Virus record (IMG/VR): IMGVR_UViG_3300045049_000125 | Location: 1-64,000 of that record | Reading direction: 5' to 3' (one strand) | From: a virus | DNA: 64,000 nucleotides | Part shown: positions 3,389 to 60,446 of the stretch, piece after piece | How positions within the stretch are numbered: the stretch's first letter is position 1 | Layout of the letters: the number at the start of each line of letters is the position of its first letter | Program-made: the position numbers and the translations under genes | The notes under the pieces: model-generated | What the model saw: only the letters and a program-made list of their open reading frames with translations | What the model was told of the DNA's origin: nothing | The model's database searches: none

Positions 3389-4227
3389 TGGCCGGATTTG
3401 ATCCTCGCATTCTGACTGTTGAATTGCAGTTTGAAGACAACTCATTGATTTATGGCGATCCTCTTTACATTAAGGTTCAGGGGTCAAAGACCATTGCCAG
3501 TCTTCAAAATACTGCAACGATCACTATTGGCAATTTGCGAAAAGATCATCGCGATTACATTCTGACGAATTGCAATCAGGTGTTGCAGTCGCAATACAAA
3601 ATCCGAAAAGTTCGGGTAATGGCAGGACGCAAATCCGTGGGCTCATGGCTCGTCTTCGAGGGCGATATCATCAGCGCGAGCGTTACACAGCCGCCGGATA
3701 TCATGCTCATTCTCCGATGCGCCACAATGGCTCGCGATAAGTCGCAGTTCTGGACTTACGTGAACACGGGGACCATTTCCCTTCAACAAATCGCACAGGA
3801 CTTCGCGGATTTCGTGGGATTTAGTCTGCTTATCGATCCTGCGGTAAATGCCAGTCAGACAGTTCCTAAATTCACATTCAATGGTCAGCCTGTGGCAATG
3901 ATGACTCGCATCAGCGAGCTTTTTAATGTCAAGTGCTATACCAATGACAATCAAATTGTCATCAAACCTTGGAGTGAGCCACTAAGTAATCAAATCGTGG
4001 AAGTTTCCACAACGTCGGGAATGGTGGGTATTCCTGAATTTACAGAGTACGGAGTCAAAGTTAAAACCCTTGTTGATCGTAATGTGGTGTTGGGTGGCGC
4101 TATGCGACTCACTTCAACCATGGTGCCCGTCATGAATGCCGATTACGTCATTACTCGGATAGACTATGACCTTGCCACTCGTGAACAACAGTTCTATTAC
4201 GATTTGTGGGCTAGCCGGAGCGGATAA
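3388..4227 (+). CDS. Baseplate hub protein
   Basis: 279 aa with ATITIGNL, FEGDI and GMVGIPE motifs; synteny. Confidence 0.75.
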   Translation: MAGFDPRILTVELQFEDNSLIYGDPLYIKVQGSKTIASLQNTATITIGNLRKDHRDYILTNCNQVLQSQYKIRKVRVMAGRKSVGSWLVFEGDIISASVTQPPDIMLILRCATMARDKSQFWTYVNTGTISLQQIAQDFADFVGFSLLIDPAVNASQTVPKFTFNGQPVAMMTRISELFNVKCYTNDNQIVIKPWSEPLSNQIVEVSTTSGMVGIPEFTEYGVKVKTLVDRNVVLGGAMRLTSTMVPVMNADYVITRIDYDLATREQQFYYDLWASRSG

Positions 4228-5289: not shown

Positions 5290-6524
5290 TGGCTTATAAC
5301 TACATCGTAAATCAGGGCGTCATTGTTCCCGATACGTCTACCACGCTAGCCGAAGTACAGGGTGAATACCTCGACGCGCTAGGCCAAGACTTGGACCTTG
5401 CACCCTCCACGCCACAGGGGCAGATGATTACGGCCGAGGTGGCTGCTCGTAATGGCGTCATCAACAACAATGCCCTTCTCGCCAACCAGTTGAACCCGAA
5501 TGAATCCACGGGCGTGTTTCTGCGCTCTGTGGGCAGTCTCATGGGCATTTCGGATACGCCGGTATCGCGCTCCGTGGCGCTCAACGTGGCTGTTACCGGC
5601 ACCCCTGGCCTTTCCTTGCCTGCGGGCTCGGAAGCCGTAAACGCCCAGGGAGCCATCTTCCTATCCATCTCTACCGTCACGTTTGTCGATGACGGTACGG
5701 GCGTGGGTCGAGCGGTCGTGACCTTTCAGGCACGTGATCCAGGCGCCGTCCAGGCGCCGGCCGGGACGCTTGTGCCCAAGTCGGCCGTCCCCGGTTGGTC
5801 AGGCATGAACAACCCCACGGACGCGGTATTGGGCTCGGTGGCAATGACCGATTATGAATACCGAATTTACCGACAGGCCGCACTTTCCAATCAGTCTCAG
5901 AATTCCACCAATGCAGCTAAGTCGAAGGTCTCCATGCTACCCGGCATTACGTCGGTAGTGGTGCGCGATAACGACGACAGTGCGCAGCAAACGATTGATG
6001 GAGTCGTGATGCCGCCGAATTCGTTGTGGGTGTGCGTCAATGACGATGGCGGCATCGGTCCGGACATTGCCATGACACTGCTTGGCTGCAAGGCTCCTGG
6101 CTGCAAATGGACGCCAGGCGTTCCATCGGGCTCCTTTGGAACGCCTGAAATGTATAGCGTCACCGATCCCATTACAGGACAAGCCTATTCGGTCACGTTC
6201 GTGCGTTCTGTTCCAAAAACGGTCTATGTGAAAATGACCGTTAAAAACAATGCCAGCGCTGCGGATATGGCAACGGCTGCGGTTGATGCCATCCTGACCT
6301 ACGCTAAAGGCAAAATGGAAGATAACCCAGGCTTGGTTATCGGACAGGACGTTTCACCGTTTGAACTTTCGGGCGCGGTGGTGGCACAGATTCCGGGCTC
6401 TCAGGTGGAAGATTGCCAAGTTTCATTTGATGGTGTGGCGTGGCAATACACTCCGTTGGTCATCCACACATGGGAACGTGCAAATCTCCCTGAAAGCAAT
6501 ATTCAAATCACGGTACAAAACTAA
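5289..6524 (+). CDS. Baseplate J-like wedge protein
   Basis: 411 aa with STPQGQ, NPN..TGVFL and TD.EYR motifs. Confidence 0.85.
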   Translation: MAYNYIVNQGVIVPDTSTTLAEVQGEYLDALGQDLDLAPSTPQGQMITAEVAARNGVINNNALLANQLNPNESTGVFLRSVGSLMGISDTPVSRSVALNVAVTGTPGLSLPAGSEAVNAQGAIFLSISTVTFVDDGTGVGRAVVTFQARDPGAVQAPAGTLVPKSAVPGWSGMNNPTDAVLGSVAMTDYEYRIYRQAALSNQSQNSTNAAKSKVSMLPGITSVVVRDNDDSAQQTIDGVVMPPNSLWVCVNDDGGIGPDIAMTLLGCKAPGCKWTPGVPSGSFGTPEMYSVTDPITGQAYSVTFVRSVPKTVYVKMTVKNNASAADMATAAVDAILTYAKGKMEDNPGLVIGQDVSPFELSGAVVAQIPGSQVEDCQVSFDGVAWQYTPLVIHTWERANLPESNIQITVQN

Positions 6525-7194: not shown

Positions 7195-9246
7195 ATGACA
7201 ACTGTAAAAATTGATATTCCGTTTGCAAATGTCGGAACGAAAACACCGATTGATGACACTCGTGCGGACGGTGTGGTCAATTTTCAACAGGGCTACACCG
7301 ACGATTATTCGCGCGAGCTTGGCGTTGATCCGCTTGCCAAGCCGGTTGAACGCGATAAATTGAACTATTTGTTTAATATCATCACGACAAACCAAATCGA
7401 TTGGATTCAATCGGCGTTTCCGCAGTGGATTCAGAGCAACGCCTATGCTGTGAATTCCTTCGTTCGTTATTCCACGAACGTCGGCACGACGCCTGAGGCT
7501 ATTTATCGCTGCGTCAATGCGACGGTGGCCGGATCGAACGCGCCTCTCAACAATCCCGATTGGGAAGAGCTGCTCACCATGGCACAGCTCAAAGCGTCCA
7601 TTCCCATGCCGGAAAATAATCTGATTTCCGTTGCCACGGATTTCAATACGCTGGGAACTAAGAACGCAACCTACGAAGTGGCAAGCGATGCTGTGGCCTC
7701 ATCGTCCCCTAATTCTCCGTCTCCCCGCGCAGGCATGCTGGAAGCCAAAGTGTGGGGAGTGGGACCGGCTTCGTTCGCTGTGGAGCGATATCTTGACTAC
7801 AACGGTCAAGTGTATTTCCGTGGCAAATCTGGATCGTCTGCGTGGTCTTCGTGGCAGACCATTACAGGTCTTCCATACACGCCAGCCAATCAGAACATCA
7901 CCATCATCGGCAACAACGGTCTGACAGGCGGTGGAGACCTTTCGCAGAACCGCACCATCGGACTGGCACCGATCCCCACGCTTACGCTGCTGGGTAACGG
8001 CACGGGCGCGTCCACATGGGCAACGGCGATTACTCTGGCGAACGGCATTCAGTTCAACAACACAACCACGCTGGGCCTCGGCAACATCACTCCGCTCTCT
8101 GTGGCAACCACATCGGGCGGTGTATCGGCCAAGAACGGTCTCTTCACCGGGGCGGCAGGCGCATTCCTGGGGTCCGACAACGCTACTCCGGGAAACATCG
8201 CGCTTCGCCCCAATGGCGTAGGTTCTGCGACAGGTCAATTCGTCGTGGGAACCGATGGGTCGGCCAATTCCTCGTTTGAACTTCGAGCTAATGGCGCTGT
8301 TCGTGGAACAGCGTTTACCGTTCCTATTGGCGTGTCCAATGGAATTGAAATCTATTACGGCATCGTAAATTCAAATGGAGGCGCAAATGCACGTAACGAA
8401 TACATCAATAACTATGGCTCTAAGTCCGGCGGTCATGAATTCTATACTCGCTCGGATACAGGTGCGGGCATTAACCGCGTTGGCGGTTTTTATGGTGTTG
8501 GTCAGGTTGGAAATCCTAATCGTCTAACGATTACCGATCCTTCCGGCGTCACGGCCAATGTTCGCAGCGATGGTGTTTTTTATAGTAGTCGCGAGATTTA
8601 TCTCACTTCGGGTGCAAACGGTCAATCGGTGGTGATGCGCCCGAATGGTCCGGATAACGCAAACGGTCAAGCAATTTTGGATTCAAACGGATCGCTTACT
8701 CTCACCGGAACCCTTGCATCAGGTGGCAATGTTCTTTCAACCAACCAATATCTTGTACTGGCCCCCACTGGCGCCTCGCCGGGTAATGGTTCCATTATCT
8801 TCCGCCCTCAGAATGTGGGCTCCACAAGTGGGCAAGCGTATATTGACCCTAGTGGAAACTTCATCGGATCGGGAATCATTCGACCGGGTTCTGATGAGCG
8901 CGTGAAAGAAAACATGCGCAACATTGAAGGAGCGCTTGAAATCGTTCGTCGCGTGTTCCCTGGAAAACTGTATGAGCGTACCGACCGAAATGGCGAAACC
9001 GAATCGGGTTATGGCGCGCAATTCGTCAAGTCGCATCCGGAAACGGCCCATCTTGTTTCGGTTGACGGAGAATTTCCAGATGAGGCAAGCGCTTATTCCG
9101 AAATCAAAAATTTTCATCACCTGCACTATGATGGGGTGATTCCGTATGCCACCAGCGCCATCATTGAGCTTCATGATATTGTGTTGGAGCAGCGTTATTT
9201 GATCGCGGAGCTGCGCGCCGAGTTGAACGAGCTAAAGGGAGTTTAA
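7195..9246 (+). CDS. Tail fibre with C-terminal intramolecular chaperone (peptidase S74-like)
   Basis: N-terminal PFA..G...QGY..DY anchor; Gly/Asn-rich body with three RP(N/Q)...GQ repeats; SDERVKEN motif at 8890 followed by a coiled coil. Confidence 0.85.
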   Translation: MTTVKIDIPFANVGTKTPIDDTRADGVVNFQQGYTDDYSRELGVDPLAKPVERDKLNYLFNIITTNQIDWIQSAFPQWIQSNAYAVNSFVRYSTNVGTTPEAIYRCVNATVAGSNAPLNNPDWEELLTMAQLKASIPMPENNLISVATDFNTLGTKNATYEVASDAVASSSPNSPSPRAGMLEAKVWGVGPASFAVERYLDYNGQVYFRGKSGSSAWSSWQTITGLPYTPANQNITIIGNNGLTGGGDLSQNRTIGLAPIPTLTLLGNGTGASTWATAITLANGIQFNNTTTLGLGNITPLSVATTSGGVSAKNGLFTGAAGAFLGSDNATPGNIALRPNGVGSATGQFVVGTDGSANSSFELRANGAVRGTAFTVPIGVSNGIEIYYGIVNSNGGANARNEYINNYGSKSGGHEFYTRSDTGAGINRVGGFYGVGQVGNPNRLTITDPSGVTANVRSDGVFYSSREIYLTSGANGQSVVMRPNGPDNANGQAILDSNGSLTLTGTLASGGNVLSTNQYLVLAPTGASPGNGSIIFRPQNVGSTSGQAYIDPSGNFIGSGIIRPGSDERVKENMRNIEGALEIVRRVFPGKLYERTDRNGETESGYGAQFVKSHPETAHLVSVDGEFPDEASAYSEIKNFHHLHYDGVIPYATSAIIELHDIVLEQRYLIAELRAELNELKGV

Positions 9247-9247
9247 T

Positions 9248-9925
9248 ATGCCAGCCTTTGGAACTACCAACATTCAAGCGAATGACGGTGTGGACATCGG
9301 TTACAAATTCTCGGCATATGCGGGAGGCGCTCAAGCGAGCGCTTCCAACTGGCTAGATGGTCCAGGCGGCCGTGAGCTGTCTACGATCCTCATGCAGCTT
9401 ATTGGAGCGCAGCAAGTCCCCAACACCGGTTGCCAGTTCCCGGACGGCTCTGACCTTGCGCAGCATTATGGTGTGGGCGGTCCTGTGGGAAGTGGTGCGT
9501 ACAACAACATCATCAACCACATAAACAACCCTTCGGCCAATCCGCAGCCCGCCTCGGTAACTGCCATCTGGACCACGTTTAATGACGGCACTACCTCAAC
9601 GTCGTGGGGAACGAGCCTTACTCCCGGACCTGGGCCAAAAAACGGCAATTGGTATTTACCAACAACTAGCGGCATCGGTTCAAATTATTGGGTCCGATAT
9701 ACGTGGGGCAATGACACGGGAACTACTCGACCAGGAGTAAATAATGGGGCAGTCGGTTGGACTTCGATTAGCAGTGAGCCGACTATCATGTTTTACATTA
9801 CGACTCGTTATGATTCGATTCGTTCGCTAGGGACATGTACCATTCAAATTGCATCTGATCCTAATGGATCAAATATCGTTTATTCGCAAACTGTGAGCTT
9901 CGACCTAGAAATCGATGTGATTTAA
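9248..9925 (+). CDS. Tail-fibre-associated protein
   Basis: 225 aa, Gly/Thr/Asn-rich and beta-prone, immediately after the fibre gene. Confidence 0.55.
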   Translation: MPAFGTTNIQANDGVDIGYKFSAYAGGAQASASNWLDGPGGRELSTILMQLIGAQQVPNTGCQFPDGSDLAQHYGVGGPVGSGAYNNIINHINNPSANPQPASVTAIWTTFNDGTTSTSWGTSLTPGPGPKNGNWYLPTTSGIGSNYWVRYTWGNDTGTTRPGVNNGAVGWTSISSEPTIMFYITTRYDSIRSLGTCTIQIASDPNGSNIVYSQTVSFDLEIDVI

Positions 9926-17019: not shown

Positions 17020-17244
17020 TTAGATCGTGATGCCGTACTCAACGAAGTCGCGCGCGGCCTCGGTCGGAACATAGCACGTGCCGTAATCGCTATCTTCCCG
17101 CTTGAGGTAACCCATGCGGATCAGCTTGTTGATTGTGCGGCGCGCGCTCAGGTAACCGGTGAAATGGCTATCCATGGAGAAGGCAAAGCCCGTGCGGACG
17201 GCAACGTTGATGGTCTTGACTTCGATCTTGGTCAACTTGTTCAT
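17020..17244 (-). CDS. Hypothetical protein (possible winged-helix)
   Basis: Start MNKLT after CACACATTCGGAG; RTINKLIRMGYL motif. Confidence 0.55.
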   Translation of the reverse strand: MNKLTKIEVKTINVAVRTGFAFSMDSHFTGYLSARRTINKLIRMGYLKREDSDYGTCYVPTEAARDFVEYGITI

Positions 17245-17275
17245 TTCGTACTCCGAATGTGTGTTAGGTGTGAGA

Positions 17276-17303
17276 ATCATACACCCTAATTTGAAACTGT
17301 CAA
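17276..17303 (-). promoter_or_regulatory. sigma70-like promoter
   Basis: TTGACA-N16-TATGAT. Confidence 0.7.
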
Positions 17304-23598: not shown

Positions 23599-24110
23599 GC
23601 TTTCCCATTCACCTTTTTCACGTGAACCAACACGCGAAGATGAAGGCATTGAATGTTGTACCCGCCTGCGCGGATCGTGCTGACAGTCACGCGCTGCTCG
23701 CCGGCATCCGTCATCACATAGAAAACGCCGTTGAAGCCATCGGAGGAACGAGCGTAAGCGCTGCTCAAAACTTCCGTTACGCCGGCCTTGTCCAGCTTGC
23801 GGGCGATGGTGGCATTGCGCTTGGCGACGACGGCGGCGCTGTGCTTGTCCATGAGCGCATCGATATCGGCGACCGGGCAGCCGTACAGGCGCTTATACCA
23901 TGTCTTTCCGCCCGCGATGGCGAACAGAATTTGATAGTAGCGCCACACATTCCGGGAAAGGGACTTGGCCTCGTCGGAGGCTTTCCATTCATTGATGGCC
24001 GCAACACGCTCGTGCGCCCATTTACGAGCGGCGGCCGCGACTTCGACGTCCAGCGGAGCGAACAGGTCGTTCAGGCTGGCGATGATGGCTTGGCGGGCTT
24101 CGTGCGACAT
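23595..24110 (-). CDS. Hypothetical phage protein
   Basis: 171 aa with a C-terminal TI.AGGYNIQCLH.R motif; preceded by the leader motif. Confidence 0.7.
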   Translation of the reverse strand: MSHEARQAIIASLNDLFAPLDVEVAAAARKWAHERVAAINEWKASDEAKSLSRNVWRYYQILFAIAGGKTWYKRLYGCPVADIDALMDKHSAAVVAKRNATIARKLDKAGVTEVLSSAYARSSDGFNGVFYVMTDAGEQRVTVSTIRAGGYNIQCLHLRVLVHVKKVNGKA

Positions 24111-24138
24111 AGGATTCTCCGAATGTGTGAATTTTGGA

Positions 24139-24372
24139 TTAAGCGATGGTGATGACGGAGCAGGTGTGACCTTCGGTGGTCTTGGTGGTCAGCGTGGCGC
24201 CCTTGAGACGGGCAAAAGCCTTGGCGGCCTCGGCGTGCTTCTTGCCGGTGACGATGATGCACGTGTCATCGTTACCCCACGCCTTGGCGCGAGCCACCAA
24301 GATTGCCACGTCAGCGCCGAAGGTCTTGCGGGCGGACTCGTTGATGGCGCGAATGTCGTTGGTCAGGCTCAT
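24139..24372 (-). CDS. Hypothetical protein
   Basis: 77 aa, first gene after the promoter at 24405-24432. Confidence 0.6.
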   Translation of the reverse strand: MSLTNDIRAINESARKTFGADVAILVARAKAWGNDDTCIIVTGKKHAEAAKAFARLKGATLTTKTTEGHTCSVITIA

Positions 24373-24404
24373 GGCGGCTTCCGGTTGTGTGGTTGGTGAA
24401 GCTC

Positions 24405-24432
24405 ATACTACTCCGATTTAAAACCGTGTCAA
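24405..24432 (-). promoter_or_regulatory. sigma70-like promoter
   Basis: TTGACA-N16-TAGTAT; spacer nearly identical to the promoter at 30236-30264. Confidence 0.7.
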
Positions 24433-25546: not shown

Positions 25547-25635
25547 GATTTCTCGTAGTCGTGACGTAATACAAGGCTCACTGTACAGCTAAAGAAATAC
25601 GTTTAGCAAGCCCATACAGCAGTTGCCGAAAACCT

Positions 25636-25744
25636 CGACATAGGGAACATAGGCATGCTACCCTCAACGATGTGATAGCGGTTCCACCGCAGCCCGGGAC
25701 GGCTTCTCATCACCTTGAGGTATGCATGCACTGTTCCTATGTCG
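25636..25744 (+). ncRNA. Structured element E1: 109-nt rod topped by two hairpins (RNA or ssDNA)
   Basis: About 33 bp of imperfect inverted repeat; 43-nt core homologous to the reverse complement of 57776-57819; functional strand uncertain. Confidence 0.6.
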
Positions 25745-25764: not shown

Positions 25765-25790
25765 AAAAAGCCCGCTTTACGCGGGCTTTT
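25765..25790. terminator. Bidirectional intrinsic terminator
   Basis: AAAAAGCCCGC-tttac-GCGGGCTTTT. Confidence 0.8.
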
Positions 25791-25801: not shown

Positions 25802-26818
25802 TCAACCCGGCCATTTCCAGAATTCGGCCAAAATGGGCGGTTGTGCGAATCCCCAGCGGTGCGCAATCCCCATGGCATTCAGGCCGCGAGCTGTGGCCTG
25901 AATCAGTCGTTGGGCGAGTGTACGCTGTGCCATTCGGCGCCACTCGTCTCCCTTCTTGCGAGCGACATCTCCCGTCTCAGGGTGCAGACCCATATCACGC
26001 AGGAAGACGATCCCGCCTGTGGGAAGCGTGATTCGCAGGCCGGCAACCTGTGGAGTAAGGCGCACGTTTTCAAACGTGATTCGATGCGCCGGGCGGTTTT
26101 CGCCATCCTTCACCGGACCCACATCGATGGTGACTGGTTGCGCCGAATCCAGCGCGATTTTAGACGCGAGATACACATTTTCGGTGAACATCTCTCCATG
26201 CACCTGCGCCAGTATCGTGGCATTGCCCGGACCTTGCCAACCGGCCGATTCGATGCCATGGGCATCCATGTGCATCGCCTCGTCAAAATCGTAACCTAGC
26301 GCTTGCAGGATGTGCATACCTTTCAAATGGGAAGTGTTCATGAGCCATGCGAACGTCCACGCCACGCCACCCCAATCAAGGTTTGCTGCGAACGTCCCCG
26401 GCTCGCCGCCGGCCTTGATGTAGGCGCGGATACCGTTCACCCACGCCTGTGCGGCCGGATCGTGATCTACGCCCGCGCGAACCAGTCCCTCGGCGTCCAC
26501 GTGGTCGCATTCGTACGTGATTGCCAGCAAATCCAGGCTCCCCACCTGATATCCCTTCAATCGATCACAGAGAACCGAGCAACCCGTATCCATGTCCGGA
26601 TTGATGAACCAAATCTTGTCGGACACGTTCATGAGTTTGCGCGCCAGTTCGTTGCCGAGGCGTGTGGGGAAATCCACCTTGTTCACGCGCCGAAGATCAC
26701 TCAGGCGCGACAGGCGCGGGCCGAACTCTTCAAAGGGCAATACCTGTTGGAGCGGATACATCGGATAGATGCCCGAATCGGCGTATTCGATGTAATCGGG
26801 CGTGACATTGATGAACAT
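25802..26818 (-). CDS. Hypothetical protein
   Basis: Start MFINV after GAGG; 338 aa; no family recognised. Confidence 0.65.
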   Translation of the reverse strand: MFINVTPDYIEYADSGIYPMYPLQQVLPFEEFGPRLSRLSDLRRVNKVDFPTRLGNELARKLMNVSDKIWFINPDMDTGCSVLCDRLKGYQVGSLDLLAITYECDHVDAEGLVRAGVDHDPAAQAWVNGIRAYIKAGGEPGTFAANLDWGGVAWTFAWLMNTSHLKGMHILQALGYDFDEAMHMDAHGIESAGWQGPGNATILAQVHGEMFTENVYLASKIALDSAQPVTIDVGPVKDGENRPAHRITFENVRLTPQVAGLRITLPTGGIVFLRDMGLHPETGDVARKKGDEWRRMAQRTLAQRLIQATARGLNAMGIAHRWGFAQPPILAEFWKWPG

Positions 26819-26819
26819 T

Positions 26820-27356
26820 TTAAAATCCTCGGTAGATGAGTCCACGGAATGTGCCACATTCCTGGCAAAACCAACAGTGTTTAGGGTTCTCGGCTCCGCA
26901 TGGCGTGTATTCGCCTTCCTGAGCAATCAGCCCCATGGCGCGCGAGCGCATCGGGAAGGGCTCTCCGCAGCGCCACGTGCGCCGCGCAGGCTCAAGCCCT
27001 AGAATTGGCTCGGGCTCCATCACGTGGACGATAGGACGCGGCATGGCGATCTTCTCGAAGTACCGGCGCACGCCCTTCCATCGCTTGTCGCTGTCCACGC
27101 GGTGCATGTTGTAGCGCTGATGGACGATGCACACATCCACCGGACCCATGCGGCGCTTGTTCGCGCTGTAGTGGCTCAGGGCCATGACAAGCACTTGGTC
27201 ACGATGGTCGCAGCCTGCCGACAGATTGCGCTTAGGTGGATGCGCAAGGATGTGGTCTGCGAGCATGGCCGCGTCTTGTGGAAACGCTTCGAGAATCAGC
27301 ACCCGTGCGTTAGGGCGCTGATTCAAAACGTTCGCTAGGATTGTCATGATTTCCAT
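26820..27356 (-). CDS. Hypothetical protein with C-terminal Zn ribbon
   Basis: C...CGAEN...CWFCQECG. Confidence 0.55.
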   Translation of the reverse strand: MEIMTILANVLNQRPNARVLILEAFPQDAAMLADHILAHPPKRNLSAGCDHRDQVLVMALSHYSANKRRMGPVDVCIVHQRYNMHRVDSDKRWKGVRRYFEKIAMPRPIVHVMEPEPILGLEPARRTWRCGEPFPMRSRAMGLIAQEGEYTPCGAENPKHCWFCQECGTFRGLIYRGF

Positions 27357-29438: not shown

Positions 29439-29642
29439 TCAGCCCTCCGCCTTGAGAAGACGAGCAGCCATCATGTGCTGCACCTTTACGTTATTCCAGA
29501 AAACAAGGTCGGCAGCATTGGAACGGATGCTGAAAGCATCGGGGATATGGCGACCATCTTGGCGAATCTCCACGATCATGCGGGAAGCGTCGCGGGCCTC
29601 GCGGATGTGGAAACGAATCTTGGCAGCAGTGGAAGCGCGCAT
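29439..29642 (-). CDS. Hypothetical protein
   Basis: Start MRAST after CACACATTCGGAG. Confidence 0.55.
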   Translation of the reverse strand: MRASTAAKIRFHIREARDASRMIVEIRQDGRHIPDAFSIRSNAADLVFWNNVKVQHMMAARLLKAEG

Positions 29643-29672
29643 GTTGAACTCCGAATGTGTGAAAGTGGAACT

Positions 29673-29701
29673 AGAATATAGCTCCACTTTAAAACTGTCA
29701 A
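29673..29701 (-). promoter_or_regulatory. sigma70-like promoter
   Basis: TTGACA-N17-TATTCT. Confidence 0.7.
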
Positions 29702-41152: not shown

Positions 41153-42532
41153 TCAACTTCCCATGTTGAAGAAATCCTTTCCTCGGTTCTTTATCTGCTT
41201 CCACAGCGCGTAGCGCAGAGCATCAAACCCATGGTTGTGGGCATCGATCAGAATAGGGAGCACGATGTCATTTTGCATCTTGTCCACTTTGTAACGGTAA
41301 TTCTTGACTTCTGCAATAAGATTTACGCATCGTGGATGAATGTAGATGCGATGGAATTGGTTGAGGAATGCAATACCGTCCTCCACGGAGCCTTGCCATT
41401 TCTCGGCAGCTCCCGTGTAGAACTCGAATTTGTGGCGAAGATGCGAAATGGTCTCGGGCCGCGCAGCATCGCAGTAAATCGGATGATGGCGCACGCCGGG
41501 CACTTGCTCCATGAGCTTGGGCAGATCGTCCAACTCCACGCGGCCGAACGCTTCATAATCGACGTACAAGTCACGATTGACGTGATCGATATAGCATCGC
41601 ACCAACGCATTGGGATCGTTTGAAAATCCGAAGTCCATGCCGTAATGGAATTCGGTATTGAGCGGTGCAGTGAATTCTTTCACTTCGGCACGACGGATCA
41701 CCTGTGCAGCGGCAATGCGCTTAACATCGCCCTTCCACACCCAATCGTAATCGGCCTGCGCCTGAATGCGCGCGTCCTCGTTCGGAGCGGTTTCAATCAG
41801 CGAAAGCGCATAGAGTCGCTCATTTTCCAGTTCAAGCGGGAAGTACGGATTGTGCTCGTAATTGACCTGCACGGATGCCGTATTCGCGCATGGGTTATAA
41901 ATCCAGCGCTTTTGCATGAAGCTGTCCGCATGCTCCGGATTGCATGCAATGATGATTCGCGAGCCGCCTTTACGAATCGTGGGGAGCAGGATTTTCCACG
42001 AACCATCGGACACGGCCTGTCCTTCTTCCACAAAGCAAAAGCCCACACCATTCAGCGATTTCACGCTGTTGATATTGGTTTTCAAGCCTTTGTAGATGAA
42101 TTCCGATCCAGTTGCTCGATTGCGAATGGACGTCTTGCCCACGATGAATCGCTTGCGCAAACCGAGGCGATCAACGTGTTCTTCCATGAGCGCATGACAC
42201 GAATCAGCGATGCTGTTCATGTGCTCACGGCACAGTAGGAAACGATCTTGAATGACATCCGCCCACAAAATCAGAGATTCTGTGATGTTGAATGACTTAC
42301 CGCTACCGCGTCCACCGTGGAACATCTGATAGCGGTATGGACTGATAAGCGGCCAAAACCGCGTATCAGCATAAAGGGCTAGACGCTCAAGACTCTCCGT
42401 CGAAGCCTTCGCCGAAATCTTCGTCATCGGATCGCGGACCGTTTGCCGGTCCAGCTTCGCCATTTCCTGCTCCACTATCTCCCGATCCGTTAGCAGGCGG
42501 GAGCTGGTGCCCTCGGTTTTGGAGTAATCCAT
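41153..42532 (-). CDS. terL: Terminase large subunit (PBSX/SPP1-like)
   Basis: HGGRGSGKS, FVEEGQ, PTIRK.GS, GMDFGFSNDP and NH.FDALRYA motifs; start uncertain (frame open to 42589). Confidence 0.92.
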   Translation of the reverse strand: MDYSKTEGTSSRLLTDREIVEQEMAKLDRQTVRDPMTKISAKASTESLERLALYADTRFWPLISPYRYQMFHGGRGSGKSFNITESLILWADVIQDRFLLCREHMNSIADSCHALMEEHVDRLGLRKRFIVGKTSIRNRATGSEFIYKGLKTNINSVKSLNGVGFCFVEEGQAVSDGSWKILLPTIRKGGSRIIIACNPEHADSFMQKRWIYNPCANTASVQVNYEHNPYFPLELENERLYALSLIETAPNEDARIQAQADYDWVWKGDVKRIAAAQVIRRAEVKEFTAPLNTEFHYGMDFGFSNDPNALVRCYIDHVNRDLYVDYEAFGRVELDDLPKLMEQVPGVRHHPIYCDAARPETISHLRHKFEFYTGAAEKWQGSVEDGIAFLNQFHRIYIHPRCVNLIAEVKNYRYKVDKMQNDIVLPILIDAHNHGFDALRYALWKQIKNRGKDFFNMGS

Positions 42533-43187
42533 TGAAGAAACCTTGAATGTGCTGCATCGTGACTGGCTGCGAATCGATGGAATCGTCATCCTCAGTCAAG
42601 AAACCCTTGAGTTTGGAAATCTGATTGAGCGCGTTCATTGCTGTCGCAGGGTCAGCCGTCAACGCGATCTTAGTGTAGGCGGCAATCAAGCCTTCCTTGG
42701 TGGTGACGTCTTCTTCGTTGACGTCATTTCCATATTGATCGCGCTTGAAGTCCGCAGCGGTTACCCAGCCGGCCGAGATGGCCTTAATTAGCTCGGCAAC
42801 GGCCTTGTCCTTGTTGCGCATTTCCGGAATCAGCATGCCTCGCGGACCCGTCTTAAAGCCGGTCACATACTGGCGAGACTTCTTCGGCAATGCGCTGAAA
42901 TCGAAGGCTTCCATGAGGATGTGACCCTCGCCCTTGCACATACCACACGGCTCAACCTTGTCTGTCTCGTCCTCTTGTGGTGGCGCGTCTTCATCGCCCC
43001 ATGTGGATAGAGCGCGATCTACTTGCTTCTTGCGCAGCTTCGCTTTGACGTCGTACACGCGCACGCCTTCGCCGCCGCATTCAGGGCAGGGGACGGGCTC
43101 TTTTACTACGCCTTTCACGTAGTCTGCGCTGATGACGTCGAGAAGGTCTCGCACTACCTCAGCGCGTACGGGGTTCTTGATCGCCAT
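42387..43187 (-). CDS. terS: Terminase small subunit with CxxCxGxG zinc finger
   Basis: Immediately upstream of terL; CPECGGEG...CGMCKGEG and G.K....G......DKA motifs. Confidence 0.7.
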   Translation of the reverse strand: MAIKNPVRAEVVRDLLDVISADYVKGVVKEPVPCPECGGEGVRVYDVKAKLRKKQVDRALSTWGDEDAPPQEDETDKVEPCGMCKGEGHILMEAFDFSALPKKSRQYVTGFKTGPRGMLIPEMRNKDKAVAELIKAISAGWVTAADFKRDQYGNDVNEEDVTTKEGLIAAYTKIALTADPATAMNALNQISKLKGFLTEDDDSIDSQPVTMQHIQGFFNGLLQNRGHQLPPANGSGDSGAGNGEAGPANGPRSDDEDFGEGFDGES

Positions 43188-43259
43188 AAGAAAATCCGGG
43201 GTGCGCTATCAAACAGACTAACACAATTCCCGGATTTTCAAGTTTTTGCTGTACTTGTA

Positions 43260-43706
43260 TTAATTAAGACGATGGCGCGCTACTTTTTCAAACAACTCGC
43301 AGAAGGTCTCAATAGTTCCCTCCACGATGCCATACGATTCAAAACAACGCACGCCGTCACTTGTGTAGACCATGCCGGGCATGCGCACCTGCCATGGTCT
43401 GCGGTTTTTGCGGTACATCAAGACCGGTGTTTTCTGCTGTTCTGATGCGCTCTTGACGCACTGCGCCCACCACTTCTCAACTTCCTTTGGCGTTTCCTTT
43501 TCGTGGCGTTTGATTTCAATGGAGAAATCGAACGTGTTTGAAAGATCATCCCCACCAACAGCCGATTGGTTTTGGTTTCGCTGAATCAGCGGTTTGTCCA
43601 ACGACTGGCCGCGCTCGTTCAAGATGCGTTCCACGATGTCATTAAGCATCGTAGCAATCTCGCGCTCTCCGGTCTGACCTTTCGCTCGGGAGTTAATGCG
43701 CGCCAT
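43260..43706 (-). CDS. Holliday junction resolvase-like PD-(D/E)XK nuclease
   Basis: NSRAKG..GERE, DL...IEIKR and W.Q...A....PVL.YR motifs. Confidence 0.8.
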   Translation of the reverse strand: MARINSRAKGQTGEREIATMLNDIVERILNERGQSLDKPLIQRNQNQSAVGGDDLSNTFDFSIEIKRHEKETPKEVEKWWAQCVKSASEQQKTPVLMYRKNRRPWQVRMPGMVYTSDGVRCFESYGIVEGTIETFCELFEKVARHRLN

Positions 43707-43811
43707 CGTTCGCCGCCTCCCCGAAGATGCGCATCCCGCGCACGTGCATGCACGCGACCCCGAGAATACCATGGCCGATCCGGCCGTTATAAAAAATTGC
43801 AAGACCCTCAA

Positions 43812-56031: not shown

Positions 56032-56997
56032 TCACAAGTCAGGAATGACGCTATGGCCGTCGCATCCGGCCATCTGAGCAGTCTTGTTCAACGTGAAATC
56101 GAACTTGTCACACAACCATTGCGGCTCACCGTCCGCACCGAGAACCGTATCAGGGCGAGACCATTGGCATGTGCGGCAATTGCGTTCCACTTCACGAAGC
56201 TGACCGCGAATCGGCAAGCACAGCTTTTTAAAACTACACCACTTGCAGGTCAGCTTTCCCAATCCGGCTCCGCGAATGCGCATAGGTGGCTTCGGCGAAT
56301 GCACGACGACATGCGCGCGGTCCATGTACTGCAAAGCCGTCTCGCGGTTGTATTCCACGATTTCCGCATACAGATCGTCATCGTTCTTGTTGACGGCGAA
56401 GAACAGGCAGTATCGGAGACCGAATTTGTGCATGTAGATTTGCATCTGGACATAGTAGGTCTCGTCACTCATCCGCACGCCGTTCAAAACCAGCTCTTTG
56501 AATCGCTTCTCGTTGTAGGTTTTGTATTCATTGAGCCAGGGCTCGCCCGGCATGGCGTCTGGCAGGTTGTGGACAATGCCGTCCATGGAACCCGCGAAAT
56601 GTCCATCTGAGGACTGGAAACGGAGCTGTTTCCCGTTGCGTTGCTGTTCGACTTTGCAGCCAATCATCAGAAGCATGGCTATAAACCGTGCTTCTTCAAG
56701 ATGACCACGATTCCACAGACGAAGCATACGCGCCCGCTTCTTCATCTCCGTGATTTCATCGTCTGCCAGCGCAATCGGGTCTTCGCCTACCCATCGAAAC
56801 GCATACCAGATGGAGCGAGCACATTCCTTGCCAATTTGGGAGGCACCGAGATGCTGTCGTTTACCTTCATCCTCGCCACGATATGCATCGGTCATGTGGG
56901 GCAGCACCTTGCCCAGCCAATAGCGGAATTTGGCACCTCCATCCGCGTTGATCGCGTCCGTAATGGCCTGCAACGTGCGCTTAGCTTGCATTGACAA
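56032..56997 (-). CDS. Cas4-like PD-(D/E)XK exonuclease with Cys cluster
   Basis: HLGASQIG.EC.R, GS.DG, EYKT, Q.Q.YM and CKWC....C motifs. Confidence 0.85.
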   Translation of the reverse strand: MSMQAKRTLQAITDAINADGGAKFRYWLGKVLPHMTDAYRGEDEGKRQHLGASQIGKECARSIWYAFRWVGEDPIALADDEITEMKKRARMLRLWNRGHLEEARFIAMLLMIGCKVEQQRNGKQLRFQSSDGHFAGSMDGIVHNLPDAMPGEPWLNEYKTYNEKRFKELVLNGVRMSDETYYVQMQIYMHKFGLRYCLFFAVNKNDDDLYAEIVEYNRETALQYMDRAHVVVHSPKPPMRIRGAGLGKLTCKWCSFKKLCLPIRGQLREVERNCRTCQWSRPDTVLGADGEPQWLCDKFDFTLNKTAQMAGCDGHSVIPDL

Positions 56998-57646
56998 GTT
57001 CCTCGGGATGCTCAGAAAAATGGGCTTTTAAATCGTTCATGAAATAACCATGGATATTCCACACATACCACTTTTCTTCCTTCCCTCGTGCGTTTATTTC
57101 CGTGTAGAGCTGCGCCGCATCGTCCACGCCTTCACCTGGGACAAGCATGCCGTCCTCCATGCGAGCAACGCCCCACAAAAGCATCAGGTCTCGCACACGC
57201 TTCGGACTCGCGCCCAATATCTGCGCGATGTTGTAAAGCGACGTATAGCCTTCCGGATATTCGCGTTTTGGATGCTGTCCCGGTAGCGCATCCTTCGGCG
57301 CTTCCATGTTCTTTTTTACGATGGGTCGAAGAATTTCAACCATGGAAGGATGCAGGATCATCCAAGACTTCGATGTCCCTGTATGAGGATTGAAATCCTC
57401 ATACATCTTAACCAACCCTTCCGCCTTACTTGTCAATTCGCCATTGGTGAGCGAATAGCGACCAGTAACCAACGCCTTTTGAACTTGGACCCATGCACCG
57501 AATCCTGTGAGACCCAGCGCCTTGGCTACTTGCGCACGACTCATAAAACCGTCTTCGTAGGTGCGTGCGTCACCACGTGAACGCTTTGGTTTCGGCCCCA
57601 TTTCCTTTGCTCGCTTGACATAAAACTCTCGATCACTGCGTTTCAT
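56981..57646 (-). CDS. Putative DNA-binding protein with two tandem antirepressor/wHTH-like repeats
   Basis: Repeats YEDGFMSRAQVAKALG... and YPEGYTSLYNIAQILG... Confidence 0.55.
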   Translation of the reverse strand: MKRSDREFYVKRAKEMGPKPKRSRGDARTYEDGFMSRAQVAKALGLTGFGAWVQVQKALVTGRYSLTNGELTSKAEGLVKMYEDFNPHTGTSKSWMILHPSMVEILRPIVKKNMEAPKDALPGQHPKREYPEGYTSLYNIAQILGASPKRVRDLMLLWGVARMEDGMLVPGEGVDDAAQLYTEINARGKEEKWYVWNIHGYFMNDLKAHFSEHPEELVNAS

Positions 57647-57672
57647 TGATGCCTCGGTTTGTTGCGTTGTGT

Positions 57673-57726
57673 AGTTGCCTATACAGCGTTGCCTATAAAG
57701 GGCACTGATGCAAGTTGCCTATACAG
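57673..57726 (+). repeat. Three direct repeats GTTGCCTATA(C/A)AG
   Basis: Copies at 57674, 57688 and 57714. Confidence 0.8.
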
Positions 57727-57739
57727 TGACCGAAAAATT

Positions 57740-57848
57740 TTGACTACTTGATACGAAGTATGGTAAGCTCAAATGGATGAGAAGCCCTCCGGGGCTGCGG
57801 GCGGAGCCGCCATCACATCAATGAGCGCATACCTCTATCAGTAGTCAA
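57740..57848 (-). ncRNA. Structured element E2: 109-nt rod topped by two hairpins (homolog of E1, inverted)
   Basis: TTGACTAC(T)TGATA...TATCAGTAGTCAA stem; core 38/44 identical to E1; functional strand uncertain. Confidence 0.6.
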
Positions 57849-57962
57849 CCCGCCGTTTCGTTGATGTTTGAAACAAGCCAAACGTACAGCATCTGCTTTA
57901 CGCTAACTTGTTGATTTCATACGGTACGTGTACCCTTGCGCGCGTCATGACGAGGGTACCCA

Positions 57963-60446
57963 ATGAACCTCTTTTCTCGCCTCTTCCGAAAGCGCCCGAT
58001 TGCCAAGGCAGTCGAAGCGTCTAAAATCGTTCCTCGAACAGCGGCCGATCTTGGTCCTGTGGAAATCACTCCGCCCGACTTCGCGGGCCTGCCGAAAAAT
58101 CCGCTTGATGGACTTCCCACCATCAATGATTTTCCCACCGTAGAAAAGTTCGCCGAATCTAAAACCGTCCAGACCAAGGATGGAAAAGTTTTTGTTGGCG
58201 ACGCGGCATCGCATCCGGTCATTACGCAGGACGGAACCTATCAGGGATCGGGAACGCCATCCGTGAATGTGGCGTGGAGCGCGTACACGGTGCCGGAGGC
58301 TGTGGGCAACTGGTACAACGCGCAATCATTCATCGGCTATCAAACCTGCGGTTTGATGCAACAGCATTGGCTTGTGGACAAGGCATGCCGTATGCCGGGC
58401 GAAGACGCCACGCGCAACGGTTATGAATTGTCGGTGATGAACGACGATGATCCGAATTTTGAAGGTCTTGGCGTGGACATCGAAACGTTTATTGCCCGCG
58501 TTCGCGAACTGGACAAGGATTATAAAATCGCTGAACACATGCGTGAGATGTGGCGCTTCACGCAAGTGTTCGGTATTCGCGTGTGCATCTTCCAGGTGGA
58601 GAGTCAAGACCCTGATTATTACGCCAAGCCGTTTAATATTGATGGCGTTACGAAGGGCTCGTATAAGGGAATCAAGCAGGTTGATCCCTATTGGATGATG
58701 CCGGTCTTTGGCGAAGGGTTCAGCGACCCAACCAGCCAAAATTTCTACGTTCCAGAATATTGGACTATTGGCGGAAAGAAATACCACAAGTCGCATTTGG
58801 TTATCGGCAAGGGGCCGGAACCAATGGACATTTTGAAGCCAATGTACATCTTTGGTGGCATTCCTCTGACGCAGCGCATTTATGAGCGCGTCTATAACGC
58901 AGAGCGCACAGCGAACGAAGGGCCATTGCTGGCTACATCGAAGCGTCAAACCGTACTGCACACGGATTTGATGGCAGCGGAAGCGCATCCGCAACGATTC
59001 TTGAATCGCATCATGAAATGGGTCTCTCACCGAGACAATTTCGGCGTCAAGACGGTTGGTCTTGAGGATGCGGTTGAACAATTTGACACCTCGTTGGCTG
59101 ATCTTGATTCGGTCATCATGAATCAATATCAGCTCGTGGCCGCTATCGCCGAAGTTCCGGCAACCAAGTTGCTGGGCACTTCTCCGAAAGGATTTCAATC
59201 CAACGGTTCGGGTGAAGAAAAGAACTACCATGAAAAGCTCGAATCTGTGCAAGCGTTCTTGACGCCACTGCTGCAACGCCACCATCAGCTCGTGGTCAAG
59301 AGCGAATATGGTGTGGACATCCAGCTTGAGGCGGTGTGGAACCGTACCGATTCGTTCACGGCGGCGGAGCTGGCCGATCTTAATTTGAAGAAGGCCCAAA
59401 CGGGCGAAATTCTGCTCAACCTTGGTGCGACATCGCCGGATGATGAGCGCAACCGTGTCAAGAATGATCCTCTCTCCGGTTACAACCACTTGGGCGACGA
59501 GGAAGCCTCAAGCGACATGGGTGCATCGCCGGAGAACGAAGCGAAATTGCAGACGGCAGAATCGAAGGAACAAACCGCGCAAGCAAAGGAAACGGAAGTG
59601 GGAGCGCCTTCCGATGCAATCGCTATGAAACCAGACCTTGATCGTCTGGCGGCATCGCTACAGCCACATATGGAAAACGACGATCTTGATGCAGGTCTCA
59701 TGGATCGACTGCGCCAATTTCATGCGATGGTCACGGGAAGTGGGGCGGACAATTTGGATTGCGAAGACATCCGCCCCATTCTCGAAGCGCTGGCAAAGAT
59801 GCTCAACGCTCCGTCTATTATGGATGCTATTACCGTTAAGCGTCGCGCCATGGAGCCCACCGTTACACGCTCGGTTCTGCCCAGCGTGAATCCTGCCATG
59901 CGTACCGAAGTCAACACGGGCGCACGCACATTGCTCGGAGATGCGGCAGTGGCAGGACGTGGCTACAGCGAGACCGGTTTGCCTGATTCAGGCATGGGTG
60001 CGAAGTACAGCCATCGCAATATGCCAAAGGTGAAAATGGGTCGTATGACCATTTCCATTGAAAATCGAAAAGGCACTGTGCGCTCGGGTGAGACATTGGA
60101 AGGAAAGGCATGGTCCACCCTAATGCCGCACCATTATGGTTACATCAACGGTGTGGAAGGCGCCGATGGCGATGAACTAGATGCTTTCGTTGGTCCGAAC
60201 ACAAAGAGCCGTCTTGTTGTAGTTATTAATCAGGTTGAGCCGACAAATCGCGAATTTGACGAACATAAAGTGATGTTCGGTTTTAATAGCGAAGAGGAAG
60301 CCCTTGAAGCGTACGCAATGAGTTATCAGAAGGATTGGGACGGCTACGATTCGCATGTAGTATTCCAGGACTTGGAATCTTTCCGAGAATGGATGCGAAG
60401 CGCTGATCTTTCGGCGCCTTGCTCCGATTATCGAACGTTTGAATAA
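57963..60446 (+). CDS. Portal protein (DUF1073-like) with C-terminal inorganic-pyrophosphatase-like domain
   Basis: FIGYQ.C, DA.RNG, H.SHL and P.TKLLG.SP.G portal motifs; C-terminal ISIEN.KG..RSG...HYGYI...GADGD.LD.FVG...FDEHKVM.GF. Confidence 0.85.
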   Translation: MNLFSRLFRKRPIAKAVEASKIVPRTAADLGPVEITPPDFAGLPKNPLDGLPTINDFPTVEKFAESKTVQTKDGKVFVGDAASHPVITQDGTYQGSGTPSVNVAWSAYTVPEAVGNWYNAQSFIGYQTCGLMQQHWLVDKACRMPGEDATRNGYELSVMNDDDPNFEGLGVDIETFIARVRELDKDYKIAEHMREMWRFTQVFGIRVCIFQVESQDPDYYAKPFNIDGVTKGSYKGIKQVDPYWMMPVFGEGFSDPTSQNFYVPEYWTIGGKKYHKSHLVIGKGPEPMDILKPMYIFGGIPLTQRIYERVYNAERTANEGPLLATSKRQTVLHTDLMAAEAHPQRFLNRIMKWVSHRDNFGVKTVGLEDAVEQFDTSLADLDSVIMNQYQLVAAIAEVPATKLLGTSPKGFQSNGSGEEKNYHEKLESVQAFLTPLLQRHHQLVVKSEYGVDIQLEAVWNRTDSFTAAELADLNLKKAQTGEILLNLGATSPDDERNRVKNDPLSGYNHLGDEEASSDMGASPENEAKLQTAESKEQTAQAKETEVGAPSDAIAMKPDLDRLAASLQPHMENDDLDAGLMDRLRQFHAMVTGSGADNLDCEDIRPILEALAKMLNAPSIMDAITVKRRAMEPTVTRSVLPSVNPAMRTEVNTGARTLLGDAAVAGRGYSETGLPDSGMGAKYSHRNMPKVKMGRMTISIENRKGTVRSGETLEGKAWSTLMPHHYGYINGVEGADGDELDAFVGPNTKSRLVVVINQVEPTNREFDEHKVMFGFNSEEEALEAYAMSYQKDWDGYDSHVVFQDLESFREWMRSADLSAPCSDYRTFE

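Follow-up and report, generated by a model that had tools for sequence, protein, structure and literature searches.

Hairpin promoters, formed by single-stranded DNA, are known from conjugative plasmids, filamentous phages and phage N4. In N4, a lytic phage with double-stranded DNA, the promoters of the virion RNA polymerase are active only after supercoil-driven extrusion of hairpins with stems of 5–7 base pairs (bp) and loops of 3 nucleotides (nt), which are read by a giant phage polymerase. Here we describe E2, an imperfect palindrome at positions 57740–57848 in the DNA of an uncultured soil phage, together with its paralogue E1, located 32 kilobases (kb) away. The DNA analysed (the window) comprises the first 64 kb of the 73,839-bp IMG/VR record IMGVR_UViG_3300045049_000125. 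E2 is a real, structure-conserved and previously undescribed non-coding element. Tentatively, and at somewhat less than even chances, we read it as a DNA-acting hairpin with a built-in promoter, situated at the boundary between replication and head genes and next to probable operator repeats for a double winged-helix protein. All functional statements on E1 and E2 made below are inferences from sequence.

The closest described systems are the Frpo/ssi single-stranded DNA promoters of the plasmids F, ColIb-P9 and pESBL, in which the -35 and -10 boxes are rebuilt within a large imperfect intergenic stem-loop that precedes an operon (PMC12672017, which also summarises Masai & Arai 1997). They form several classes unrelated in sequence, and pairs within one replicon resemble each other (PMC12672017). 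E2 is similar to them in layout. One DNA strand can form a long imperfect intergenic hairpin (z-scores of -3.9 to -7.0 among the folds with DNA parameters), the boxes of E1 and E2 lie in the stem with a spacing of 18 nt (about 17 bp in Frpo/ssi), the -35 box is paired and positions -12 to -10 are looped out. Furthermore, in E2, E1 and the pre-portal hairpin of a related phage the strand with the boxes would be the template of the leftward (minus-strand) operon immediately to the left. The differences are equally clear. Frpo/ssi elements reside on DNA that enters the cell single-stranded, whereas the phage described here is a double-stranded DNA myophage; moreover, E2 is shorter, has a three-way tip and would be equally able to fire as a duplex promoter toward the portal gene. 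Unlike the N4 promoters, E2 has about 27 pairs, a branched tip and sigma70-type boxes, and no giant polymerase of the N4 kind was seen among the open reading frames (ORFs) scanned (the largest ORF of the window has 827 amino acids (aa)).

Fold and genomic setting of E2

The pairings that the initial annotation had listed for E2 were all present, and the fold was confirmed with ViennaRNA on both strands using RNA as well as DNA parameters. The region 57730–57860 folded with -48.9 kcal/mol on the plus strand (z -4.58) and -51.7 kcal/mol on the minus strand (z -4.57), and none of 200 dinucleotide shuffles folded as well on either strand. DNA parameters reproduced the structure (z -3.9 and -4.7). 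The rod is composed of helices of 9, 4, 2, 5, 5, 3 and 4 pairs; between them lie bulges of one base, a single A.C mismatch and two small internal loops. Its tip is a three-way junction with two hairpins, P2 (AGCCC-TCCG-GGGCT) and P3 (GCGG-GCGGAG-CCGC). Genome-wide, a seed-coverage measure of local inverted repeats ranked E2 first and E1 second, and among the true intergenic regions only those of E2 and E1 had clearly low folding z-scores (-5.3 and -3.1). The rods were not singled out by raw minimum-free-energy window scans or by blastn self-comparison. The features in and around E2 are the following.

57740–57848: E2, a 109-bp imperfect palindrome folding into a rod of about 27 pairs with a three-way junction; highest inverted-repeat coverage in the genome
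57767–57826, plus strand: conserved core of E2 with helices P1e and P1g and hairpins P2 (57783–57796) and P3 (57797–57810); inverted match to E1
57740–57769, plus strand: promoter-like signal of the sigma70 extended -10 type (TTGACT, 18-nt spacer ending in TGg, TAAGCT), by consensus match; predicted start at about 57776–57779
57674–57726, plus strand: three direct 13-bp repeats GTTGCCTATA(C/A)AG at 57674, 57688 and 57714, probable operator or iteron sites; unique in the 73.8-kb genome
57721–57736, plus strand: left-flank motif ATACAG-N-CCGAAAA, ending 3 nt before the E2 rod; two exact matches in the genome, at equal distance from E1 and E2
56981–57646, minus strand: gene of a 221-aa protein with two tandem MerR/Xis/RacA-like winged-helix domains in the predicted structure; first gene of the leftward replication operon
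57963–60446, plus strand: portal protein with a C-terminal InPase domain (Pfam PF06381, 1.3e-71; PF18823, 1.4e-40); first gene of the head module
57930–57959, plus strand: hairpin GTACCCTTGC...GAGGGTAC pairing the portal Shine-Dalgarno sequence (GAGGG), from the sequence and the fold of the intergenic region

E2 lies in a 316-nt divergent gap between the leftward replication block and the rightward head block. Its position before the portal ATG (57963) and beside three direct repeats had been given correctly in the initial annotation; the gap between the end of the rod and the ATG is 114 nt. The leftward block extends from 10.3 to 57.6 kb and encodes a primase-helicase, PolB, clamp, ligase, Sak4, SSB, RusA, large terminase, a superfamily 2 (SF2) helicase and a Cas4-type exonuclease. 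The gaps harboring E1 and E2 are two of the largest intergenic gaps of the genome. The record was assembled from soil and rhizosphere metagenomes, and its ends overlap by 127 bp, so that the contig closes on itself. Similarity of the portal DNA places the phage in the broad PB1/BcepF1-like myophage group, with 66–68% nucleotide identity over about 20% of a 4-kb portal query to the Burkholderia phages WTB and Maja, the Xanthomonas phage XcP1 and Pbunaviruses.

Two RNA functions considered in the initial annotation, a packaging RNA and a promoter-mimic RNA (compared here with pRNA and 6S RNA, respectively), found no support in Rfam: no family, pRNA and 6S included, matched the region 57650–57970 with E-values up to 10, and at gathering score the whole window contained six tRNAs and nothing else. 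A packaging RNA that binds the portal would be in keeping with the neighbouring portal gene and with the end helix and two-looped three-way junction that E2 shares with phi29 pRNA; the two loops of E2 are complementary over 4 nt (UCCG/CGGA), those of E1 over UCC/GGA. However, the second loop of E1 has only 3 nt, the phage is of a different type with a standard large terminase, and in the closest relative the pre-portal hairpin is unbranched and the tip is not conserved. We consider a packaging function extremely improbable. 6S RNA was discarded as a candidate, as the rod has small internal loops and no large central open-promoter bubble in addition to the missing Rfam match.

The paralogue E1 and hairpins of related phages

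The second copy named in the initial annotation proved to be real. A covariance model of the 60-nt core (R1) scored 89.2 bits for E2, 82.3 bits for E1 and at most 13.8 bits elsewhere in the genome. The E1 locus contains these features.

25636–25744: E1, paralogous 109-bp element with core 25662–25720; core inverted relative to E2, base and flank co-oriented with E2
25635–25664, plus strand: promoter-like signal (TCGACA, 18-nt spacer with TGc at its end, TACCCT), in register with that of E2
25611–25632, plus strand: E1 left flank GCCCATACAG-CA-GTTGCC-GAAAA, repeat-like with the CCGAAAA motif; alignment score 24 versus a shuffle maximum of 21
25765–25790: intrinsic terminator for both directions, 20 nt right of E1; partial Rfam matches of the terminator type are confined to this hairpin

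E1 and E2 are exactly 109 nt long each. When the plus strand of E2 was aligned with the minus strand of E1, 47 of the 60 core columns were identical, 38 of them within the 44 columns of the centre. The outer arms are unrelated in sequence, with helix lengths and pairing retained: of the 27 rod pairs that can be aligned, 15 are identical in the two copies, 11 carry changes on both sides and one on a single side, and not one pairing is lost. Chance does not account for the common fold and this covariation. Judged by the substitutions, two non-coding sites of the phage lineage are under selection for pairing, not for sequence.

The two copies are not simply inverted. Base and flanks are direct repeats, and in either element the single-base bulge that follows the basal helix of 9 bp is on the left arm; the forked tip, by contrast, points the opposite way with respect to the base. 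Consequently, the earlier statement that E1 on the plus strand has the sense of E2 on the minus strand applies to the core only, since in flank, bulge side and promoter boxes both copies agree on the plus strand. A long stem with a two-hairpin cap (T or Y shape) that exists in flip and flop orientations is familiar from the terminal hairpins of parvoviruses and adeno-associated virus (AAV), which are located at genome ends, arise by hairpin transfer and are nicked by an HUH Rep protein. E1 and E2 share the long stem and the two-hairpin cap in either orientation. Unlike the viral termini they are internal, and the orientations belong to two loci instead of being two states of one. No HUH gene was seen among the phage ORFs scanned in a search that was not exhaustive. 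Rfam matches around E1 with E-values up to 10 were sub-threshold and at chance level (best 22.4 bits versus a gathering score of 41), and most of them fell on the neighbouring terminator.

The elements are known from two genomes, that of the window's phage and that of its closest relative (IMGVR_UViG_3300044656_000109, here G001), whose portal protein is 54% identical and which is colinear over 16–61 kb. In G001 the 221-aa gene has a leftward homologue, which is followed by AT-rich tandem repeats, a long hairpin and the portal gene. This portal hairpin (rodB) comprises 180 nt, is unbranched and unrelated in sequence to E2 (z of the region -10.5). A second hairpin (rodA, z -3.9) occupies the E1-equivalent site 3′ of a terminator that follows a conserved gene pair. 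Between rodA and rodB neither similarity nor complementarity was found.

Some further features of the relatives were recorded. The gene pair upstream of E1 (25802–27356) is conserved in G001 (27% and 39% identity), where a terminator and, beyond it, a hairpin follow as well. In G001 the region equivalent to that of E1 (8817–9643 of locus L028) is an 830-nt non-coding stretch that looks like an origin. It contains a GC-rich 130-nt hairpin (9338–9467), two perfect DnaA boxes (9215 and 9280) that form a 13-bp inverted repeat, a 33-nt direct repeat at about 9147 and 9299, AT-rich hairpins at 8880–8945 and 8996–9052 and a bidirectional terminator at 9553–9575. In the relative's locus L004 a 22-nt alternating purine-pyrimidine palindrome, CGCGCGCGTGTGCGCACGCGCG, lies between repeats and hairpin (3395–3416) and could adopt Z-DNA or a hairpin. 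A more distant phage (G003, IMGVR_UViG_3300048898_000066; portal 45% identical) has two long intergenic hairpins at 5327–5446 and 56912–57124, which share the motif AATATTGCGATCTTRC in the arms and not in the tip. Paired hairpins may thus be a wider habit of the phage group. In two loci with portals 51–52% identical (L018 and L020) no significant pre-portal fold was detected (z -1.2 and -0.5).

Searches for the element itself remained without result outside the window's phage. Scores of the covariance model stayed below 14 bits in 20 portal-related IMG/VR loci, in Burkholderia phage Maja and in five related whole records. DNA patterns of the core had no match in viral contigs and, in a second scan of these, two chance matches within coding sequence; metagenome contigs and genome contigs gave none. 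The primase-helicase as query yielded no additional relatives.

The narrow distribution is one of the observations expected for a neutral or selfish quasi-palindrome, resembling a miniature inverted-repeat transposable element (MITE) or maintained by template switching, that has no function and lies in promoter regions by chance. Direct repeats of the CGAAA(A/T) type on both sides of E1 and of the G001 portal hairpin, as well as the freely flipping core orientation, point in the same direction. Nevertheless, both syntenic sites carry hairpins in phages whose proteins share only about 50% identity, with hairpin sequences completely turned over, and there are no further copies in the genome or in three public collections. 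Moreover, no transposase was present among about 38 larger ORFs scanned, the annotation of the genome not being exhaustive. A functionless element is therefore improbable.

Promoter-like signal in the left arm

The boxes of the plausible left-arm promoter pointed out in the initial annotation are present, with TTGACT at 57740–57745, TG at 57761–57762 and TAAGCT at 57764–57769. In the folded plus strand of E2 all of the -35 box is paired, and positions -12 to -10 are located inside a GTAA/G internal loop, so that the -10 box is partly looped out as had been stated. A composite signal was defined as a -35 box with at least five of six matches, a spacer of 16–18 nt, TGn (TG at -15/-14) and TAnnnT, and both strands of the 73.8-kb genome (147 kb) were scanned for it. 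Two matches were obtained, one at the first base of E1 and one at the first base of E2, both on the plus strand and both with an 18-nt spacer. As about two matches per genome are expected by chance, their number is unremarkable, and what counts is where they lie, that their spacers are identical and that they share a strand. In a comparison of the plus strands of E1 and E2 the boxes agree at 10 of 14 positions, the remaining spacer at 6 of 16. The unrelated portal hairpin of G001 also contains a signal of this kind, TTGACA-N17(TGc)-TAGGTT, in the left arm and on the portal strand. Upstream of either rod no promoter was recognisable on either strand. Elsewhere (17303, 24432 and 29701) the phage has host-type promoters with consensus sigma70 boxes, and the use of sigma70-like promoters is documented for Pbunavirus 14-1, which relies on them (PMC10914365).

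On the minus strand the mirrors of the signals read TTGACT-N17-CTCATT in E2, GCGACA-N17-TACCTC in E1 and TATACA-N17-TAGGTA in the portal hairpin of G001. None of them has both -11A and -7T, since the arms of all three elements differ at precisely this place by an internal loop or a mismatch. In the switches of phages P2 and 186, mirror-image promoters stand face to face across 35–60 bp. Unlike these, the minus mirrors of E2, E1 and the G001 hairpin have no usable -10 box, and the spacers are complementary as well, a property that twin promoters can do without.

These signals allow a mechanism to be proposed. In duplex DNA the left-arm promoter would read rightward from a start inside the conserved core, and the portal/head operon would receive a leader of about 185 nt with a three-way junction of small size at its start. 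Since promoter arm and right arm are complementary, this stretch can also fold on itself. It might do so as a cruciform when the DNA is negatively supercoiled, or as a hairpin in single-stranded intermediates of replication or recombination. In the folded form, with the -35 box paired and positions -12 to -10 in an internal loop, the promoter would be hidden. Alternatively, as in Frpo/ssi, RNA polymerase might be re-aimed round the tip and read leftward into the replication operon. Three things are presumed here: the boxes must be active, the DNA must fold inside the cell, and the 221-aa protein must bind the repeats.

From the last step a two-state promoter could be derived, which as a duplex fires into the late portal/head operon and as an extruded hairpin fires leftward into the replication operon. 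We regard this extended version as decidedly unlikely. If it were true, the shape of the DNA would set the direction of early versus late transcription, with E1 as another switch of this kind.

Several points weigh against a DNA-level promoter, in addition to the chance expectation given above. The signals of E1 and E2 count as one conserved feature and not as two, because the elements are paralogues. The -10 hexamer of E2 is weak (three of six) and leans on the TG extension, and rodA of G001 has no promoter boxes. The best-conserved part, the 60-nt tip, is left unexplained by the model. Double-stranded DNA myophages are not known to pass through a single-stranded stage. Bulged, imperfect palindromes are poor at cruciform extrusion, and template switching at quasi-palindromes can maintain the complementarity of arms mechanically, without selection.

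The position of the predicted start also bears on another explanation, namely a promoter with a short structured leader for each operon, E2 on the plus strand serving the portal gene and E1 on the minus strand the operon of a 72-aa gene. Only the core (P1g-P2-P3) would be made as RNA and would work in cis from the 5′ end of the transcript, perhaps as a stabiliser of the mRNA or as a put-like antiterminator. In both copies the sense of the core is that of the downstream gene, the predicted start places the three-way junction at the extreme 5′ end of the transcript, and a promoter followed at once by two adjoining hairpins is reminiscent of the put RNAs of HK022. However, the signal on the E1 minus strand has no -7T, and on this strand E1 begins only 20 nt after the terminator. 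Complementarity of the arms and the co-oriented flank would remain unexplained, and P2 and P3 consist of just 4–5 bp with loop sizes that differ between the copies. This explanation is improbable.

Possible action as DNA, as RNA or in replication

G.U pairs are nearly absent from the four rods (E1, E2 and rodA and rodB of G001), with 0–3 among 40–68 pairs each, and in three of the four the energies of the two strands differ by no more than 2 kcal. Few G.U pairs and equal folding of both strands are unusual for a selected RNA and expected of a DNA palindrome, and DNA action is favoured for this reason. The initial annotation had deduced a weak preference for the minus strand of E2, in the same sense as E1 on the plus strand. 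In fact, the minus strand folded better in both copies (by 1.8 kcal in E2 and by 1.2 kcal in E1), and the preference disappears because the two senses tie, summing to -100.5 and -99.9 kcal/mol. Furthermore, the rod is unable to form in an RNA from the arm promoter, since a start at about 57776–57779 gives the core and the right arm without the left arm. Of the earlier suggestion that E2 is a single-stranded DNA promoter or origin, the promoter part gained from the recurrence of the boxes in the G001 portal hairpin and from the signs of DNA action; E2 as an origin mark was not supported.

The strongest rival is a full-length rod RNA, whose transcription on the plus strand would begin at a phage-specific promoter within the conserved left flank. 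In that case E2 would be the structured 5′ leader of the late operon and E1 a free small RNA of about 160 nt. Owing to the inverted cores, the two RNAs would mirror each other and their tips would be complementary, and they might kiss and pair like CopA/CopT or RNA I/RNA II or serve as sites for RNase III. This explanation accounts very well for the inverted, most conserved core. The RNA folds are significant, a duplex of the E1 and E2 plus-strand RNAs reaches -107 kcal/mol (z -11), a terminator directly follows E1 on the plus strand and the left flank is co-oriented at both copies. If both arms were transcribed together, the geometry of the E2 helix would suit an RNase III site like the R sites of T7, for which a double-stranded RNA of at least 20 bp interrupted by an internal loop is required within a transcript. 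CopA/CopT and RNA I/RNA II are mirror-image stem-loop RNAs with complementary loops from opposite strands of one locus. The putative E1/E2 pair is similar in being mirror-image and differs in that its members lie 32 kb apart and that pairing is not kept in G001, where the two hairpins are not complementary to each other. In addition, a plus-strand promoter is not recognisable upstream of either rod, the scarcity of G.U pairs and the lack of a favoured strand speak against a selected RNA, the promoter boxes inside the arm would be a coincidence and Rfam offers no match. We consider a full-length RNA possible and still unlikely.

The flanks are organised alike at both sites. On the E2 side the order is GTTGCCTATACAG three times, ATACAGTGACCGAAAA, 3 nt and the rod, and on the E1 side, where the repeat unit is present in one and a half copies, it is GCCCATACAG-CA-GTTGCCGAAAA, 3 nt and the rod. 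The pattern ATACAG-N(1-6)-CCGAAAA has exact matches in the genome at the flanks of E1 and E2 only, co-oriented on the plus strand. A low-depth second strain was present in a different sample, which belongs to the same study or to a sister study. It deviates at 57650, 57651, 57670 and 57694, and by the change at 57694 repeat 2 becomes GTTGCCCATAAAG, the variant found in the E1 flank. The contig of this strain ends inside the left arm of E2, and no difference is listed for the covered part (57740–57774). Logan DNA contigs of the source samples contained no joints, ends or inverted form, which counts neither way.

The 221-aa protein is probably the binder of the adjacent 13-bp repeats. It matched no Pfam or PHROG family. 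The AlphaFold2 model had a mean predicted local distance difference test (pLDDT) score of 87.6, and with VIA-align both halves aligned at Z 4–6 to winged helix-turn-helix DNA-binding domains, resembling MerR, Xis, RacA, plasmid Par and small-terminase DNA-binding domains. Because these Z scores are middling, they indicate a DNA-binding fold without a specific function. Foldseek returned nothing at E-values of 0.001 or below. A search with a hidden Markov model (HMM) through 1.8 billion representative proteins found 12 homologues, ten of them further ones. A word-based search returned the protein itself only, IMG/VR the G001 contig only, and scans of metagenomes and genomes nothing; tblastn with three members of the family against GenBank phages was likewise negative.

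Repeats next to the gene of a DNA-binding protein that heads the replication operon are also compatible with a replication element, either a hairpin for single-strand initiation or helicase loading or part of an iteron-type origin. In this scheme the repeats would be bound by the 221-aa protein and the palindrome would unwind or extrude, while E1 would provide another site, whose tip orientation follows the direction of the fork. The hairpins fold with DNA parameters on both strands, the cores of E1 and E2 lie on opposite strands, the phage encodes primase-helicase, SSB, Sak4 and RusA, and the E1-equivalent region of G001 has the two perfect DnaA boxes, on which no conclusion was based, and other repeats. 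On the other hand, there is no AT-rich unwinding region beside E2 (GC 0.49) and no perfect DnaA box in the genome of the window's phage. The GC skew follows the direction of transcription without a separate switch, and no sign was seen that E1 and E2 mark origins or termini, a question raised in the initial annotation. The fold of the 221-aa protein matches generic winged helix-turn-helix domains, and Rep-type initiators were absent among the matches listed. A role in replication has no positive support in the sequence of this genome and is quite unlikely.

If E2 acts as a hairpin promoter on DNA, the hairpin-promoter principle would extend to ordinary double-stranded DNA phages by way of a palindrome at the replication/head boundary of a myophage. 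E2 would then be a clonable object for asking whether DNA shape controls the timing of phage gene expression. If RNA is the acting molecule instead, E1 and E2 would form a trans-encoded mirror-image antisense pair controlling late genes, which would be equally undescribed. At the least, they are structure-selected non-coding sites that were missed by Rfam.

Three observations concern neighbouring genes and promoters. The large terminase gene (41153–43811, minus strand) lies inside the leftward replication block, adjoining a RusA-like resolvase gene and a tRNA cluster, and is 15 kb away from the portal gene; in Maja the terminase gene is directly 5′ of the portal gene. Consensus sigma70 promoters (TTGACA-N16/17-TAnnnT) are present on the minus strand in the window at 17242–17303, 24108–24432 and 29640–29701 and, beyond the window, at genome position 73047. 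The three promoters of the window (17303, 24432 and 29701) are followed by a shared leader, CACACATTCGGAG...ATG, and are probably early promoters of leftward operons. Finally, in the hairpin at 57930–57959 the paired GAGGG is located 4 nt 5′ of the portal ATG, and this hairpin may control translation of the portal gene.

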